DNA from: a virus
Virus record (IMG/VR): IMGVR_UViG_3300017989_000003
Location: 91,387 to 155,386 of that record
Direction: 5' to 3' (one strand)
DNA: 64,000 nt
The translations under genes and the position numbers were made by a program. Positions 3,349-51,387 of the stretch are shown piece after piece (the first letter of the stretch is position 1; each line of letters begins with the position of its first letter). Under the pieces are notes generated by a model, which saw only the letters and a list, made by a program, of their open reading frames with translations, ran no database searches and was not told the DNA's origin.

Positions 3349-3717
3349 ATGAAAGAATTAACTTTAACTGAACTATTGGATAAAGAGACAGAATTGATAG
3401 TGTACTTCAGGAAGCACATGCTGGTTCTGATTTCTGAGAATAAGAAGAAAAAATCTCAGAATAACAGAACGACCAGAACTGTGAAAACTAGTTCTGGTAA
3501 ACTGAGAAGGTACAGAGTTTTCTTCGGGGCGAACCGTCGACCTGATTTCGATGTTTCAAACCCGACAGAAAAAGACTTTAGATTCAAAACAGTAAATAGC
3601 AGTTCCAGATTATTTAGCTCAAAAGAGCTAACTGAGGAACTGATAAGAATTCTTACTTACCATTCAACAGAGGTGTATTATGTTAGCATTAAACATATCA
3701 CAGCACGAGCCAACTGA
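3349..3717 (+). CDS. hypothetical basic protein
   Basis: ORF; ATG 3349 behind AGGTG. Confidence 0.65.
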   Translation: MKELTLTELLDKETELIVYFRKHMLVLISENKKKKSQNNRTTRTVKTSSGKLRRYRVFFGANRRPDFDVSNPTEKDFRFKTVNSSSRLFSSKELTEELIRILTYHSTEVYYVSIKHITARAN

Positions 3718-4049: not shown

Positions 4050-4128
4050 ACAACATGTTGTGGTGTGTAGTATACAAAATACTACTACACCGTTACTGGT
4101 TGCAAAATACCCCTTGACAAAATTGACA
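4050..4128 (+). repeat. extended dispersed repeat copy (NrdR-box-like palindrome + GTTACYGGTTGCA + CCCCTTGACA)
   Basis: Colinear with inverted copy 9217..9286. Confidence 0.75.
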
Positions 4129-4129
4129 A

Positions 4130-4501
4130 ATGGAGGGAAAAACAATGGACTTTAACGAGATTTCTGAAAACAATGAACTTGCTCAGAATCACATAAACGA
4201 GCAAAGTTCCACTGAAATAAATGATTTCGTAGATTTCTTGGAAGCTGTTGAGAAAATCATCGAAGGTGAATCTCACAGCTCATTCGTTTTACGAATTCCA
4301 CTGGATGACATTAGATTAAAAAAACTCGAACAGGCACTGAAAGATGTTGATTTGGCGATAAACGCCAATCAACTCTACTGCCACAAAGGATGTGGCAGTA
4401 GAATCCTCTGGTTCGGCACCGCTGTCGGTGCCGAAACGTTTACCTGCGGTAAATGCACCGCCAGAGTAAATGTAAACCCCCCGTTGAGAAGAAAAAATTA
4501 A
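4130..4501 (+). CDS. hypothetical protein, C-terminal Zn-ribbon
   Basis: ORF; CxxxC...CxxC. Confidence 0.7.
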   Translation: MEGKTMDFNEISENNELAQNHINEQSSTEINDFVDFLEAVEKIIEGESHSSFVLRIPLDDIRLKKLEQALKDVDLAINANQLYCHKGCGSRILWFGTAVGAETFTCGKCTARVNVNPPLRRKN

Positions 4502-14555: not shown

Positions 14556-14676
14556 TGGTGGGGCGGGCAAGGTTCGATACTTGCACGACAGGTTTACAGC
14601 AACCTTCTTTTACACCTGTCTTACTGCTGTTAGTATTTGCCACAGACTATTAGCGTCTAACTTTCGCCACCGCCCC
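14556..14676 (-). ncRNA. 121-nt tRNA-like RNA with expanded anticodon/variable region
   Basis: 7-bp acceptor GGGGCGG/CCGCCCC + ACCA; D-arm GCG/CGC; T-arm GCAAG/CTTGC; no canonical anticodon arm. Confidence 0.8.
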
Positions 14677-44254: not shown

Positions 44255-44281
44255 AAAGGGGGGACAAATGTCCCCCCTTTG
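44255..44281. terminator. bidirectional terminator
   Basis: AAAGGGGGGACA/TGTCCCCCCTTT. Confidence 0.8.
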
Positions 44282-44317
44282 GTTTACTGTTTAATTTCTA
44301 TGAAAGGCAGGTGGACA

Positions 44318-44764
44318 ATGTCTAATAGCGTGGATATAGTAACTGTCGGTGACTCTCCTAATATAAAACTAGGTGAGCACTTAATCTTGGATTTTAATGA
44401 ATGCAAAGCTGTTGACGAGAACGGAAAGAGTGTGTTGTGTAACATAGAGTACATAGAAGAAATTCTGCTAAGAGCTGCTGAAATTGGTGGAATGACTTAT
44501 ATGGCTCATAAAATGGTGAAGTACCCTCCTAATGGAAGCGTTAGTGGAGTTGTAATAGTATCTGAGTCGCATATTTCGATACACACATGGGATGAATACT
44601 ACTACGCTATGGTGGACATTAATAGCTGTGGTGATGTAAATGGGGTAATGGCAGCAATGAACCACCTGATGCGAACACTAGGGTCAACTTACCCAAAAAT
44701 AACCCGTGTCGAACGGGGTGTGTATAAACAAAAATATTTTCGCGATAAGTCTAACTGTCTATAG
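44318..44764 (+). CDS. speD: S-adenosylmethionine decarboxylase proenzyme
   Basis: G.HLILD, GVVIVSESHISIHTW self-cleavage motif, D..SCG. Confidence 0.92.
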   Translation: MSNSVDIVTVGDSPNIKLGEHLILDFNECKAVDENGKSVLCNIEYIEEILLRAAEIGGMTYMAHKMVKYPPNGSVSGVVIVSESHISIHTWDEYYYAMVDINSCGDVNGVMAAMNHLMRTLGSTYPKITRVERGVYKQKYFRDKSNCL

Positions 44765-45101
44765 TGTCATACCGTATTTCTACTTGTTCTGATATGTAGT
44801 TTACAAGATTTCCGAGTGTGTAGTCTTTTTTATCTTTCCATTCAGTATCTGGAATATAAATTTCAAATGTGTCTTCGACAAACAATATTAGCATTAGAGT
44901 GTCTAGACTATCCATACCAAGGTCAGATATAAAATTAGATTCTAATGTGACCTCTTCCACAAAATTATTCTGTTCTTTTATTTCTTTGACTAAACATTGT
45001 AGTATGGTGCTATTTTTCCATTCTTTGTAGTCGCTACAAGCGCTAAGTCCGTTGGAAGTGTCCGAGCCTTTTAATCTGCAATATTGCTTACGTAGATTCA
45101 T
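44751..45101 (-). CDS. acpP: acyl carrier protein with N-terminal extension
   Basis: DLGMDSLD...E..F.I.IPD phosphopantetheine site. Confidence 0.85.
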   Translation of the reverse strand: MNLRKQYCRLKGSDTSNGLSACSDYKEWKNSTILQCLVKEIKEQNNFVEEVTLESNFISDLGMDSLDTLMLILFVEDTFEIYIPDTEWKDKKDYTLGNLVNYISEQVEIRYDTIDS

Positions 45102-45124: not shown

Positions 45125-45244
45125 CCCGCTTCGAGCCGCTAATTTATTACTTCTCACCCCTTTCACGTCTTCCAGTATACGTTAACGAAAGAGATTACTT
45201 TCTTCACAAATTAAACGGCTCGCGCTATCTGGAACTACCGCGGG
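45125..45244 (-). ncRNA. candidate structured RNA with loop-E-like motifs and pseudoknot
   Basis: Four nested helices with G-U pairs on the - strand, GAA/AGUA internal loop, 6-bp TTCCAG/CTGGAA pseudoknot. Confidence 0.65.
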
Positions 45245-45251
45245 TTCGTAG

Positions 45252-45488
45252 TTAGCCAATTCTTGTTACGTTTAATGCTAGTTGTCCCTTATTGTTCTCA
45301 GCAATATCAAACTCTACTTTATCGCCAGCACATAGGGATTTATACTCGCTATCTGTTCTAATTTCAGTGTAATGCACAAAACAGTCCGGATTTCCGGTAC
45401 GTTCAATGAAACCGTATCCTTTATCTCCATCAAACCATTTTACAACACCAGTTACGTTGTACGCTAAGATATTAACTTCTTTTGCCAT
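45252..45488 (-). CDS. csp: cold-shock domain protein
   Basis: GVVKWF...KGYGFI, FVHY RNP motifs. Confidence 0.92.
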   Translation of the reverse strand: MAKEVNILAYNVTGVVKWFDGDKGYGFIERTGNPDCFVHYTEIRTDSEYKSLCAGDKVEFDIAENNKGQLALNVTRIG

Positions 45489-45507: not shown

Positions 45508-46116
45508 TTATGTTCTAGCTACGGTAATCTCAGTGTCAAAACTATTAGCTCCGCCGTTAATAGCCCCCTGAACTCCAGCAGCGTTGTTTACAAAATCATG
45601 GGAATCGGCAGCTGCTATTCCAAACTTAGCTGCTTCTACATCTGCTACCTGGTTTGTACCCCAGTACCTGAACTCCCACGAATATTCAGTTTCTTGCCAG
45701 TCTAACCTATCTTTAAGATAGTCACTACATCTGAATGTTAGGCTTATTTCGTCAACTCCAAACGACATAATACAGAATATTGTTATGCCAGGTTGTGCCA
45801 AATAATCCAATGTAGCATATTTATCGAATACATCGACAATGCCTCTACCTATGGCGTCTTGTACAGCCATTCTACCTCGATTAGCGAAATCGTCGGCAGT
45901 CAAAGTTGGAACATCATCTAAGGGAATATGCTTCCACACATATTCAAACAAATCGTCGTATTTTACAAGAGTTACTACTGCATCTTTTAGTCCTGGAGCA
46001 GCTTTCTGTGCAGTTATAAGAGCATTTATCTCAGTGATAATGTTAGCTTCTACTGCGGCTATATTAACTGACCTATCGAGAACTAACACGATGTTAACTA
46101 GATTTGGGTTTGCCAT
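45508..46116 (-). CDS. VWA-domain protein with degenerate MIDAS
   Basis: IVLVLDRS..., RG..A..DAIG; DxSxS and TDG motifs altered. Confidence 0.7.
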   Translation of the reverse strand: MANPNLVNIVLVLDRSVNIAAVEANIITEINALITAQKAAPGLKDAVVTLVKYDDLFEYVWKHIPLDDVPTLTADDFANRGRMAVQDAIGRGIVDVFDKYATLDYLAQPGITIFCIMSFGVDEISLTFRCSDYLKDRLDWQETEYSWEFRYWGTNQVADVEAAKFGIAAADSHDFVNNAAGVQGAINGGANSFDTEITVART

Positions 46117-46630: not shown

Positions 46631-46659
46631 AGTATAGTCTACTTTTCTAGATTTGTCAA
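46631..46659 (-). promoter_or_regulatory. sigma70-type promoter TTGACA-N17-TATACT
   Basis: Consensus match. Confidence 0.75.
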
Positions 46660-47013: not shown

Positions 47014-50000
47014 TTACCCACAACCACCAGCACCACCACAATTTCGGCATGTTTTACATGACCCTGTTATTTCTAAGTCAGGCGACCCACAATATGGGCA
47101 TACATCCCCACTCTTTAATAGCTTTGTAGTCTTTTTGCCAACTTTAGGTGATTGATTTGGGTTTTTATTAACTATTTTGTCGTCGGTTATTTCTTTGATA
47201 TGTTGCAATGCTTCTTCGATTGTAAACTCCCTAGTGTCGTTGTCTGAGTCATCTGACACGAATTCCTGCTCTAGATAAGTGAATATGTAGTCTATAATCG
47301 ACCCAGCAAACCTTATCTTAGGATTGTTGGTAATTCCAGACGGTTCAAATCTAGTATGCCTAAACTTATCCACTAGAACTTCTAGTGGAACACCATATTG
47401 TAAGGCAATAGAGGTCAATGTAGCTATAACATCTAATAAACCGTTTATTGTAGAACCAGTTCTAGCAGCATTGATAAAAATCTCCCCTACATCTCCATTT
47501 TCGTATAAACCAATGGATAGATACGCTTCTTGCTGTCCTACTGATAGTTTATGGATTATAGCAGGTCGTGTCGCGGGCATTCTATTTCTGTTAAGTTGTT
47601 TAGGTGTATTCGGTATCACTGGCTCTTTATCGTCTGAAGTTGAGCTAGTCGATAGTGGTTGTACACCTTTTGAGCCATCTCGGTAAATAGATATGTCTTT
47701 CAATCCTAGTCTGTGAGCTTTTATGACAACATTCTCAATGTCTTCAATGGTAGCTTCGTTCGGTAAAGATACTGTTTTTGATATTGCACCTGACAAGAAT
47801 GGTTGTGTAGCCGCAAGCATCATCAAGTGTCCGTCTGACGATATATACCGTTTATTCCCTTTCGTTTTATAAGCACAATCAAATACAGCTAATGTCTCGT
47901 CATCAATGTAAGGCGCACCTTCCATGGTATCGTTATCTTCTATGTATTCGAGTATTTCTGCTATTTGTTCATCTGTGTACTCTCGGGCTTCTAACCCTTT
48001 TCGTACTATGGTAGTTGCCATCTTTAGATGACCACCGCCTGATAATTTTTTATATACCACTAATCCCATTAGTGGTTCAACTCCTGTTGATTCGAAGTCC
48101 ATTGCAAACCCAATAGTGCCTGTAGGAGCAAGTAGTGTAACTTGTGCGTTTCTTAAAGGTGGCTTTTCAGATAGTATATTACATAATTGCTGAATTTCGT
48201 CTGTGAATAACTGCTTTGGTAGTTTTTTCCATGCGTTAATATGCTGGTCTATTACTTTATAGTGTGTATCAGGGTTATAGTGTTTGTAGGGACTAAGTAT
48301 ACTAGCTATTGCTGCACTTACTGTATAAGACGTAAGAGTCATTAGCATTGTGATTGAAGACGCTATTGTCCTTCCGTTGTCAGAGTCATACGGAATGCCT
48401 AGTGACGCAAGTAAACCTCCAAGATTACCATATCCCAGTCCAATTGGGCGATAATCACGACTATTATCGGTTATTTCTTTTGTTGGGTAACCTGATAAAT
48501 TTATTAGTATGTCTTGTGTTATAGTCATAATTTTTACAGCTGCAATAAAACCTTGAACATCAAAATCTAAGTCGTCCTCTCGAAATTTCATGAGATTAAT
48601 ACTAGCTAGATTACAGGCTGAGTCATCGCAAAAAATAAATTCCCCGCAGTTGTGTACATGGATACCATTTGCCCATCCTGCTGGCTCACTTTCACCTAAA
48701 ACTGTAAAATCATAAACACACCCATTGCCTATACATTCAAATGATTTCACCTTAGTAGTGTATGGTTTACCAGATGAATTAGTAGATTCTAAAATTTTGA
48801 TTAAAGCATCAGTTTTGTACTTTTGGATAAATCCGATATGCTCTGCAAATTTTTTCAAACTTCTTACGTTAGCTATGTTTAGGTCATAACTTTCTTTACA
48901 TTCATATACTCCATTCCTAAATTCCACTTCTTTTTGTTTATTTGTTGTTATGTATGAAAATACGCCGTACAGTGTGAGTAATTTCTGAATTGTAGTACAC
49001 ACATTTCTATTAGTTGTTTTTAGTGCTACTCTTGTGTTTTCTGGAGTAGAGCCATTTGCTGAAAATAAGCCTTTTAAGAACGCGGCTATTTCTTTTTTCG
49101 AAGCTGATAGCAGTGTTTTAGGAAAAGTTCTTTGTGGGATTTTTTCTTTGTCTATGTTAAGAAAATCCCACAAATGGTTAAAATAACTTCGGTATATTAC
49201 TCTTTTTTCACAACGGTCATCTCTTTCTGTTAATAAACTAAGTAATGGGTCTTTGTTTTCGTTTAATTTTAATGACACAAAATGTATTACGTCGTCATCT
49301 TCGCCGTCCTTCGAAAAATACATTGCAGCGTATTTATGATGTTCATCTGCGTAAGTACCATCCCCGAATAAAAATCCAGCGATTGTGAAGTCAGATTCAT
49401 CTAAATCATTATTTTGGTTTATTTCGCTGTTCCAATCAGGAACATCGTCTACCACTAAAGATATTCTTCTATTAACACAATCATGAGCCGCCACATAACC
49501 ATCTTCTCCACAAAATATTTTATGGTCGCTAGTGCATTTTAATTCAAATCCGGATGTTGTTTCGAGTTTGAACACCGGTTTTACACCAGTTTTGAACACT
49601 TTAACTTTTTTTAATCCATCTGGCGTTAGTATATCCACAGTACTACCGTCTAATTCCATTATTTCTTTTATGCCGTCTCGTGTATGCAATAATGTATCAG
49701 CTGATAGACAAGGATTACTGCTTTTAATCTTAAATTTATCGGAACAGGTGTTCCAATTGTTAATATTGTCTATATAGAAATAACCTGGGTCTCCACATCT
49801 ATGGGTAGCTTTAGCTGCTTCATGCAGTAATTCTCGCGCTTTGAACGTCGGCGCTTTGTGTGCATTTAGGTCAGGACGTACAAACTTAGTGTCCCATTGA
49901 AGGTCATTTTCTACAGCGTCCATAAAATCATCTGTTATGGCAATAGACGTGTTAACATTTTGGAAAGCTACAGTGTCATATGCTTCATTTGGGTATGTAT

Positions 50001-51387
50001 TTGGGTCACCATATCCTGCGTTCATAAGAGCGACAGCTTTCTCTTCTTCGTTTGCCTTACACGTGATAAAGTCTACGATTTCTGGATGGTCTACATTTAG
50101 TATTTCCATTTTTGCTGACCTTCTGCTGTTAAAAACAGCAATACCATTTCCTGAGTATATGTCGCTAGTTTCAGACCATATTACGTAGTTATGTCCACTT
50201 TCTGGTGATTTGTCGTCAGCCGTTGGGCAGTCAACTTCCACAGAATAGACATCCATAATGCCAACTTTGCTAACTGACACTACACGGTGGTTTTCTTCTG
50301 ATACAGTTTCTACTAATTTATCCGCGTGCATTTGGGAATGTGTAGATAAAGATGTCAAGTCTTTAGCAATTAGTCTATGCAAGAGTTCTTTTCCTTTATT
50401 TCCATCGTGTAGGTTAAGAGATAAGTAGTTTTCTTTGTCCCTACTTACACTACAACTAAATAAAGAATTACCTGGTTTCAAATCACCTGCTTTACGTACT
50501 GTATTGTCAGATAATCTAACAGGATGGTCATCGGACATGTCGAATACGCCTTTATCAGTTGTTATTCTAACAACTTGTTTTTTGCCAGACTTCCACGCTC
50601 TAGCCCATTTAGCTTTATACCTACCAGCTGGTGGGTCGTAACTTAATACTATAAACTCCTCATTAGACTCAGCTAAATCTTTTACAGGAATAGCGCCTTT
50701 TGCTGTGTATACCCGCTGGTATGGAGCTAAACACTTGCCTCCAGACTTTACTATGTGAGCAATTGAGTCATATATACGCATGAATGATAGTACTCCAGAC
50801 GCTTTTCCACCTCCAGTTAAATTTTCGTCTTTTGCTCTTAGACTACTAAGGTTCTTTCCAGTGCCAGAACCCTCTTTGAAGATAAAAGCTTCTTTATTAG
50901 CTACATCCATGATACTATCCATTGTATCGTCTAGCGCTAGTATGAAACAAGCTGAGCATTGGTTAGAACTATTCTCGACACCTAGATTAAACCACACTGG
51001 TGAATTGAGCCATGCTATTTGCATAATAATTATCCACATTAGCTCATCGCGAAAAACATGTGAGTCGTCAGCATTGAAATAACCTGCTGTTACCCCATAG
51101 TCTGTTATTGTATTAACTACTCTTGCTGCTAAGTGCCGCAAAGAACTTTCTCGGTTCTCGCCTGCTCCCTTAAAAAATTTAGACGCTATAATAGTCATAG
51201 CGTTCAAACTGTAGAAATCTGGGAATTCTACATCCTTTTGTTCGAATATAGTATTGCCAGCATTGTCAATAATGTTTACATCTTCAGTAACCCAATGTAA
51301 GTGGTCTTTTTTTGCCATTACATCATGGTAAAAAGAGCTACTATTTTCTTTATAGTAGCCCTCGGTGAAAAAACGACGTATATTCAC
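47014..51387 (-). CDS. nrdJ: class II (B12-dependent) ribonucleotide reductase with two inteins and C-terminal TSCPD-like domain
   Basis: NSPVWFN, QCSACFI, NP|CGE, APTGTI, AISKTV, YRDG; terminal CPxC/CxxC. Confidence 0.95.
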   Translation of the reverse strand: MNIRRFFTEGYYKENSSSFYHDVMAKKDHLHWVTEDVNIIDNAGNTIFEQKDVEFPDFYSLNAMTIIASKFFKGAGENRESSLRHLAARVVNTITDYGVTAGYFNADDSHVFRDELMWIIIMQIAWLNSPVWFNLGVENSSNQCSACFILALDDTMDSIMDVANKEAFIFKEGSGTGKNLSSLRAKDENLTGGGKASGVLSFMRIYDSIAHIVKSGGKCLAPYQRVYTAKGAIPVKDLAESNEEFIVLSYDPPAGRYKAKWARAWKSGKKQVVRITTDKGVFDMSDDHPVRLSDNTVRKAGDLKPGNSLFSCSVSRDKENYLSLNLHDGNKGKELLHRLIAKDLTSLSTHSQMHADKLVETVSEENHRVVSVSKVGIMDVYSVEVDCPTADDKSPESGHNYVIWSETSDIYSGNGIAVFNSRRSAKMEILNVDHPEIVDFITCKANEEEKAVALMNAGYGDPNTYPNEAYDTVAFQNVNTSIAITDDFMDAVENDLQWDTKFVRPDLNAHKAPTFKARELLHEAAKATHRCGDPGYFYIDNINNWNTCSDKFKIKSSNPCLSADTLLHTRDGIKEIMELDGSTVDILTPDGLKKVKVFKTGVKPVFKLETTSGFELKCTSDHKIFCGEDGYVAAHDCVNRRISLVVDDVPDWNSEINQNNDLDESDFTIAGFLFGDGTYADEHHKYAAMYFSKDGEDDDVIHFVSLKLNENKDPLLSLLTERDDRCEKRVIYRSYFNHLWDFLNIDKEKIPQRTFPKTLLSASKKEIAAFLKGLFSANGSTPENTRVALKTTNRNVCTTIQKLLTLYGVFSYITTNKQKEVEFRNGVYECKESYDLNIANVRSLKKFAEHIGFIQKYKTDALIKILESTNSSGKPYTTKVKSFECIGNGCVYDFTVLGESEPAGWANGIHVHNCGEFIFCDDSACNLASINLMKFREDDLDFDVQGFIAAVKIMTITQDILINLSGYPTKEITDNSRDYRPIGLGYGNLGGLLASLGIPYDSDNGRTIASSITMLMTLTSYTVSAAIASILSPYKHYNPDTHYKVIDQHINAWKKLPKQLFTDEIQQLCNILSEKPPLRNAQVTLLAPTGTIGFAMDFESTGVEPLMGLVVYKKLSGGGHLKMATTIVRKGLEAREYTDEQIAEILEYIEDNDTMEGAPYIDDETLAVFDCAYKTKGNKRYISSDGHLMMLAATQPFLSGAISKTVSLPNEATIEDIENVVIKAHRLGLKDISIYRDGSKGVQPLSTSSTSDDKEPVIPNTPKQLNRNRMPATRPAIIHKLSVGQQEAYLSIGLYENGDVGEIFINAARTGSTINGLLDVIATLTSIALQYGVPLEVLVDKFRHTRFEPSGITNNPKIRFAGSIIDYIFTYLEQEFVSDDSDNDTREFTIEEALQHIKEITDDKIVNKNPNQSPKVGKKTTKLLKSGDVCPYCGSPDLEITGSCKTCRNCGGAGGCG
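48649..49710 (-). mobile_element. intein (354 aa) with LAGLIDADG endonuclease at the catalytic NP|C site
   Basis: CLSADT...IAGFLFGDG...FLKGLFSANG...VHN|C. Confidence 0.92.
50128..50733 (-). mobile_element. intein (202 aa) with eroded endonuclease region
   Basis: GGK|CLAPYQ...SDDHP...AVFN|SRR. Confidence 0.88.

Follow-up and report, generated by a model that had tools for sequence, protein, structure and literature searches.

The last 64 kb of virus record IMGVR_UViG_3300017989_000003 (positions 91,387 to 155,386; 64,000 nt, hereafter the window) encode, on the minus strand between a cold-shock domain protein gene (csp) and a gene for an acyl-carrier-like protein (ACP), a compact RNA that folds into a double pseudoknot. 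The same knot is kept by a related phage, L073, and, in a short form, by the apparently unrelated phage L163, which is why we think that the RNA does something. Comparison of these sequences argues that the fold is real and under selection. For its role, the sequences suggest, more tentatively, a cis-acting module selected at a gene junction of a polycistronic phage mRNA, with an effect on stability or translation. The motif is apparently undescribed, as set against Rfam 15, and it looks rare and phage-borne, as far as exact-pattern scans, which miss diverged members, can tell.

The element begins with a perfect helix, P0, that starts inside the csp stop codon in the window and 2 nt past the stop in L073. 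The loop of P0 holds the 5′ strand of P1, whose partner is the last strand of the RNA; P0 and P1 therefore form an H-type pseudoknot. A second knot is closed by the long arm between them, where the terminal loop L4 pairs with the four nucleotides that follow P0, making the whole RNA a double pseudoknot (Table 1). A preliminary description, made from the sequence alone, had listed helices P1 to P4 on the minus strand at 45125–45244. All of these helices are present, and P1–P4 are part of the minimum free energy fold of this strand (-39.4 kcal/mol, z = -2.56, compared with z = -0.69 for the plus strand). The G-U pairs by which the strand had been chosen point to the minus strand in the window, L073 and L163 alike. 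The 3′ end stands as described, but the true start is 45253, the 6-bp P0 having been overlooked. The internal loop of the arm carries the strands of a loop E, or bulged-G, module (AGUA opposite GAA or GAG) in two pairs, one of them with GAG, and going by the loop-E consensus these strands would pair non-canonically. From the geometry, we would expect P1, P0 and pseudoknot 2 to be stacked as a single rigid column, braced by the arm, which would bend back either midway along the internal loop or at the conserved bulge of 4 nt. A three-way-junction alternative, in which a small hairpin (45238–45222) replaces P0, is possible in L073, but in the window a bulge interrupts it; P0, in contrast, is perfect in the two phages.

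The evidence that carries this fold comes from L073. Relatives at 92, 72 and 70% identity came from a search that used the gene of 202 aa preceding csp. L073 is the closest of them; its RNA lies directly after its own csp, at the end of the contig, and scores 66.7 bits (E = 5e-15) with a covariance model built from the window sequence only. Silent sites have diverged widely between the two phages, to saturation in csp: identity at four-fold sites is 4 of 21 there and 33 of 75 for the neighbour gene. Across this divergence, all 33 comparable base pairs are kept: 20 are unchanged, 4 have changed on one side, 9 carry compensatory changes and none is broken. The 13 changed pairs all still pair, an outcome with a probability of about 9e-6 under random mutation of the same sites. 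In this alignment, P3 and P4 were placed in register by hand, but the six changed pairs in P0, P1, pseudoknot 2 and P2 do not need that choice, and all six are retained. In P0, where each phage forms 6 of 6 pairs, one change is compensatory and one is a wobble change; in pseudoknot 2, two of the 4 bp show compensatory changes. In the P3/P4 region, the sequence is mostly replaced while every pair is kept; the internal-loop strands agree in 19 of 20 nucleotides (10 of 11 in the 5′ strand, 9 of 9 in the 3′ strand).

This comparison, proposed in the preliminary description, thus bears out its fold, the pairing between loop and junction included, while correcting two details. The long P2 exists and its proximal part is conserved, but the AU-rich distal 7 bp are not kept in L073. 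Pseudoknot 2 is backed by covariation but comprises 4 bp, at most 5, instead of the proposed 6, because the outer U belongs to P0 and is a C opposite A in L073.

But is the elaborate arm a fixed part of the element? A P0-hairpin pattern fixing 17 bases of the short form had one hit in IMG/VR, in L163, a tRNA-rich phage with a near-identical strain, L176. Here, about 55 nt comprise P0, P1, a 4-bp P2 hairpin and the AA joiner, without the loop-E arm; the bases of pseudoknot 2 can pair with the 5′ flank instead. Since L163 keeps the knot without the arm, we regard the knot as the core and the arm as an add-on. The stress that the preliminary description laid on the loop-E arm was therefore only partly justified: its strands are nearly invariant in L073, but it is dispensable in the short form, and the conserved core of P0 and P1 had been missed. 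Likewise, the csp/ACP context reported for the window is correct there but not conserved, as the L163 copy is intergenic between co-oriented genes, with neither csp nor ACP nearby. Motif support comes from three independent sequences only (window, L073 and L163). When these are aligned with a model that excludes P1, 98% of 55 cells are paired, compared with 25–50% in slid controls, and for P1 itself the count is 15 of 15 paired cells, including a compensatory change (C-G/U-A) and a G-C/G-U change. Identity extends in L163 to the central 4 bp of P0, though these were part of the search pattern. The upstream gene has diverged between L163 and L176, yet their spacer has hardly changed. Further elements of the upstream spacer of L163 (1868–1932) are an 11-bp hairpin, a segment that can pair with the Shine-Dalgarno (SD) sequence and an 8-mer that is complementary to the P0 loop; the spacer may be an expression platform or part of a larger RNA.

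Searches beyond these phages were negative throughout. Rfam 15 gave no hit over the element in the window or L073 at E up to 10, and for L163 only an SD-driven match to freshwater-2 at 15.8 bits against a cut-off of 49.9; the earlier statement that this is no known riboswitch or ribozyme holds for all three forms. BLAST returned chance fragments only, from cultured phages for each of the three forms and from plasmids for the short form; an Arthrobacter match was rejected as lying inside an HNH gene. Patterns for the loop motif and P2 found chance hits only in IMG/VR and JGI metagenomes. In GTDB, patterns gave zero and then 7 hits, all in long open reading frames (ORFs) and lacking the 3′ half, none of them a genuine copy. 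Covariance-model searches found no copy in 437 prokaryote genomes from three phyla or in 47 unrelated virus records, and one supplementary file of PMC11109978 held no match. No second copy exists in the window phage genome or in G001 (L174/L175), a 30-kb phage fragment that bears the short form and encodes 16 tRNAs. The phage relatives L074/L177, L075, L160 and L162 lack the RNA in the parts covered, and searches for related loci otherwise with csp and the 202-aa neighbour gave no useful relative. In L075, a relative at 70% identity, tRNA-like genes read by eye (3480–3560 and 4090–4245) flank csp in place of the RNA.

The source record is a complete uncultured virus of 155,386 nt with direct terminal repeats, found in metagenomes of marine sediment and seawater; no RNA dataset is listed among them, which has no bearing on expression. 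Contigs from three runs in two studies, possibly the source samples, contain the stretch with the RNA in identical and unbroken form, so the stretch is not an assembly error. Given a promoter-like site upstream and a terminator-like hairpin downstream of the genes around it (Table 1), the window RNA most likely lies inside one polycistronic transcript. Read-through from csp to ACP is ruled out by stops in all frames, and no ORF spans the window copy.

Table 1. Features of the long-form RNA and of its surroundings in the window (helix strands are given in 5′ to 3′ order of the minus strand where paired)
Feature	Position	Strand	Remarks
Whole RNA element, long form	45125..45253	-	129 nt; GC content 46%, compared with 37% for the window
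P0 helix	45253-45248 with 45238-45233	-	Perfect 6 bp; 9-nt loop consisting of GAA, P1 5′ strand and G
P1 5′ strand	45240..45244	-	Inside P0 loop; pairs with 45129-45125 (pseudoknot 1, H-type)
Pseudoknot 2 5′ strand	45229..45232	-	Follows P0 without gap; pairs with 45175-45172
P2 5′ strand	45206..45222	-	Proximal 9 bp conserved; distal AU-rich part variable; 4-bp hairpin in short form
Internal loop 5′ strand	45195..45205	-	GAA ... AGUA; half of two back-to-back loop-E-like motifs
P3, 4-nt bulge, P4 and loop L4	45157..45194	-	Bulge GUUA (GUAA in L073); L4 holds pseudoknot 2 3′ strand (45175-45172)
Internal loop 3′ strand	45148..45156	-	GAG ... AGUA
P2 3′ strand, AA joiner (45131-45130) and P1 3′ strand (45129-45125)	45125..45147	-	AA joiner invariant
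Cold-shock domain protein gene (csp), upstream	45252..45488	-	78 aa; Pfam CSD, E=1e-22; stop codon 45254-45252
Acyl-carrier-like protein gene (ACP), downstream	44751..45101	-	116 aa; Pfam PP-binding, E=5e-5; Atlas look-alikes are ACPs
SD-like AGGA of the ACP gene	45111-45108	-	13 nt after RNA end
Sigma-70-like promoter	46631..46659	-	11/12 consensus match only; best promoter-like site nearby; likely transcript start
Terminator-like hairpin just past ACP gene	44703..44717	-	Consensus match only; likely transcript end

Of the roles named in the preliminary description, a new cis-regulatory RNA, a ribozyme or an sRNA, we tentatively favour a cis-acting one at this junction. The window and L163 copies both have co-oriented genes on either side, lie downstream of a sigma-70-like promoter matching 11 of 12 consensus positions, and show neither a strong promoter-like site nor a terminator of their own. 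From the end of the RNA to the next ATG there are 23 nt in the window, in agreement with the earlier estimate of about 23, and 19 nt in L163; the corresponding distances to the SD are 13 and 10 nt. The ribosome-binding site is outside the fold in both phages, and the window SD is predicted to be unpaired at about 0.9 in all modelled states. A stable knot in this position would mark a boundary within the mRNA and could shield the downstream cistron from decay; it might also, or instead, offer a landing or protein-binding site just outside the open ribosome-binding site. In either way, it would set the amount of the downstream protein. For the two csp-linked copies, one could further speculate that a ribosome stopping on csp melts P0, tying folding to csp translation. 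The operator of T4 gene 32 is a translation-control pseudoknot upstream of the start site that acts in cis from outside the SD. The standby pseudoknot of tisB (PMC7708055) also lies upstream of the start site, acts in cis and leaves the SD outside. The phage RNA has no sequence in common with either, its fold is far more elaborate, and its SD in the window is not predicted to be occluded.

Several observations weigh against such a cis-acting role. The downstream genes differ, ACP in the window and an unknown 131-aa protein in L163, so that no common regulatory logic is visible. The core bases of the window and L073 are conserved even within helices, beyond the need of a mere stabiliser; this would fit a catalytic or binding pocket, and we therefore keep more specific explanations in view. 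Lastly, relatives whose neighbour genes are 70–72% identical have no RNA after csp, suggesting that the RNA is dispensable or mobile.

Among the alternatives, we consider it possible, though doubtful, that a stable non-coding RNA is trimmed from the operon transcript and works in trans; it might, for instance, be a decoy or scaffold to which a host protein of RNA binding, defence or translation attaches. The fold is self-contained with both ends in helices, the identity of the neighbour genes is irrelevant to its presence, and the long form exposes purine-rich loop-E faces. The raiA motif (RF03072; PMC12968392) offers an analogy, and an analogy only: its arm is bent at an internal loop, the arm tip pairs with a linker, and it combines two pseudoknots with an E-loop that docks on a pseudoknot. 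However, raiA is a larger, stand-alone bacterial RNA with helices P1–P8 (253 nt in one example) and another strand order; compared with its core of P1–P6 and PK1/PK2, the 129-nt phage RNA has a different topology and no covariance-model hit at E up to 10. A trans-acting RNA would also be expected to fit poorly with the absence of a promoter and terminator of its own, with the similar spacing to the next start codon in two lineages, and with a short form of only about 55 nt.

A self-cleaving ribozyme of a new class, cutting the polycistronic mRNA at the junction with the arm and pseudoknot 2 as a peripheral brace that speeds folding, is in our view unlikely. It would account for the smallness of the knotted core, for the conserved bases within it and for a peripheral arm that is optional. 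The hepatitis delta virus (HDV) ribozyme is laid out as a 5′ stem, a 3-nt joiner, a second stem, a long variable arm, a short A-rich joiner and a closing strand; read directly, the phage RNA has this helix order minus P3/L3, and a CGAA run precedes its last strand in all three sequences. The HDV-like (delta-like and theta) ribozymes share with it two pseudoknots and an occurrence in phage genomes (PMC10879173), and the vicinity of phage genes is enriched in self-cleaving ribozymes (PMC4604425, PMC10085705). However, the defining parts of every class checked are absent. There is no P3/L3 and no P1.1, a single G separates the P1 5′ and P0 3′ strands in all three, the second knot is formed by the arm tip, and no tRNA adjoins the RNA. 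HDV-like ribozymes have an unpaired catalytic C at the start of J4/2 (PMC10879173). The C of the CGAA run is the candidate for this role; it and the G pair with the invariant CG that opens P2, and the C-G pair is kept in all three sequences. If the RNA were cut 5′ of P0 in the HDV manner, the cut would fall in the csp stop codon. The hammerhead core elements CUGANGA and GAAA are missing from the conserved columns, also with regard to the non-circular permutations described in PMC10085705. In pistol, the P1 loop pairs with the P2–P3 junction and P2 and P3 are joined by a 2-nt cleavage junction (PMC4604425), while the first loop of the phage RNA pairs with its 3′ end. Rfam gave no ribozyme hit at E up to 10, pistol included. 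It is a doubtful but attractive thought that the core could be the catalytic centre of an undescribed small ribozyme class, HDV-like minus P3/L3, or else a phage-specific riboswitch pocket, with the double loop-E arm as its natural brace.

We hold a riboswitch aptamer of a new class, or a protein-sensing operator for the downstream gene, to be decidedly unlikely. The fluoride and preQ1-II aptamers are H-type pseudoknots with a hairpin inserted in the last loop, and the same topology, formed by P0, P1 and P2, is present in our three sequences, upstream of a gene in the window and L163. Within L163, the upstream segment can pair with the SD, predicted to be unpaired at about 0.4–0.6, and the upstream 8-mer is complementary to the P0 loop. 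There is, however, no Rfam sequence match to either family (crcB, RF01734, for fluoride), the ACP and the unknown protein are not cognate genes and are unrelated to each other, and the loop-E arm and second pseudoknot are additional. The window copy is without an expression platform, its SD being open in all modelled states and no terminator being present. No copy was found in the cellular genomes searched, and known riboswitches are rare in phages (PMC5473149).

Two further ideas are compatible with any of the above. The short form of L163 and L176 could be a long form cut short, or could resemble it only by chance, in which case the motif would have two members, both linked to csp; we find this improbable. 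It was found by a pattern that fixed 17 of its bases, and its 3′ end resembles the internal-loop strand of the long form about as well as it does the P1 strand, MAFFT aligning it with the former, so that a truncated or duplicated history is possible. On the other side, the pattern had its single viral hit in an intergenic region, and the 3′ half outside the pattern (a CG-closed hairpin, AA and the P1 complement) occurs in only 36 of 200,000 random stretches and in 0 of the 7 chance hits in GTDB genomes. It is highly improbable that pseudoknot 2 forms between molecules to give dimers or rings like phi29 pRNA. In favour of this idea, the long arm (about 16 bp, the loop and 12 bp) must reverse direction to reach its partner in cis, and loop-E motifs are not known as sharp hinges. 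Against it, the lengths of the arm before and after the internal loop roughly suit a fold-back in each of the two long copies, this helix is closed in cis in the short form, and the site lies within an mRNA, distant from packaging genes.

The surroundings of the element have peculiarities of their own. The ACP-like gene has an N-terminal extension, and a search of proteins gave no close relative. Tail-to-tail, the gene overlaps one for S-adenosylmethionine decarboxylase (44279–44764, plus strand), just before which lies a perfect 11-bp hairpin (44255–44280) that is terminator-like on both strands. The 202-aa gene upstream of csp (45508–46116, minus strand) has no Pfam hit and is vWA-like by eye; its domain forms the N-terminus of proteins of 903–1050 aa elsewhere (P0014 in L160 and P0015 in L162), and P0014, which is followed by csp in L160, gives faint immunoglobulin-like hits. 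Farther upstream, a class II ribonucleotide reductase of 1457 aa (47014–51387, minus strand) shows intein and LAGLIDADG hits, while its 1056-aa ortholog in the relative L074 has no intein hit on record. Another RNA in the window (14556–14676, minus strand) is tRNA-like, with an acceptor-like stem, a T-arm-like hairpin and an enlarged middle; it is not called by ARAGORN and has no Rfam hit at E up to 1.

Finally, we would like to consider what this RNA could mean for phage biology. It is a compact fold, supported by covariation and outside all Rfam families, and nature provides it both as a minimal core of 55 nt and as a braced version of 130 nt, which makes it cheap to test; it would also serve well as a blind target in the prediction of RNA structures. 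New classes of ribozyme or riboswitch seldom turn up, and several ribozyme classes came from phage gene junctions. If the RNA is instead an element of stability or translation, it would represent a new way for phages to tune single genes within long mRNAs.
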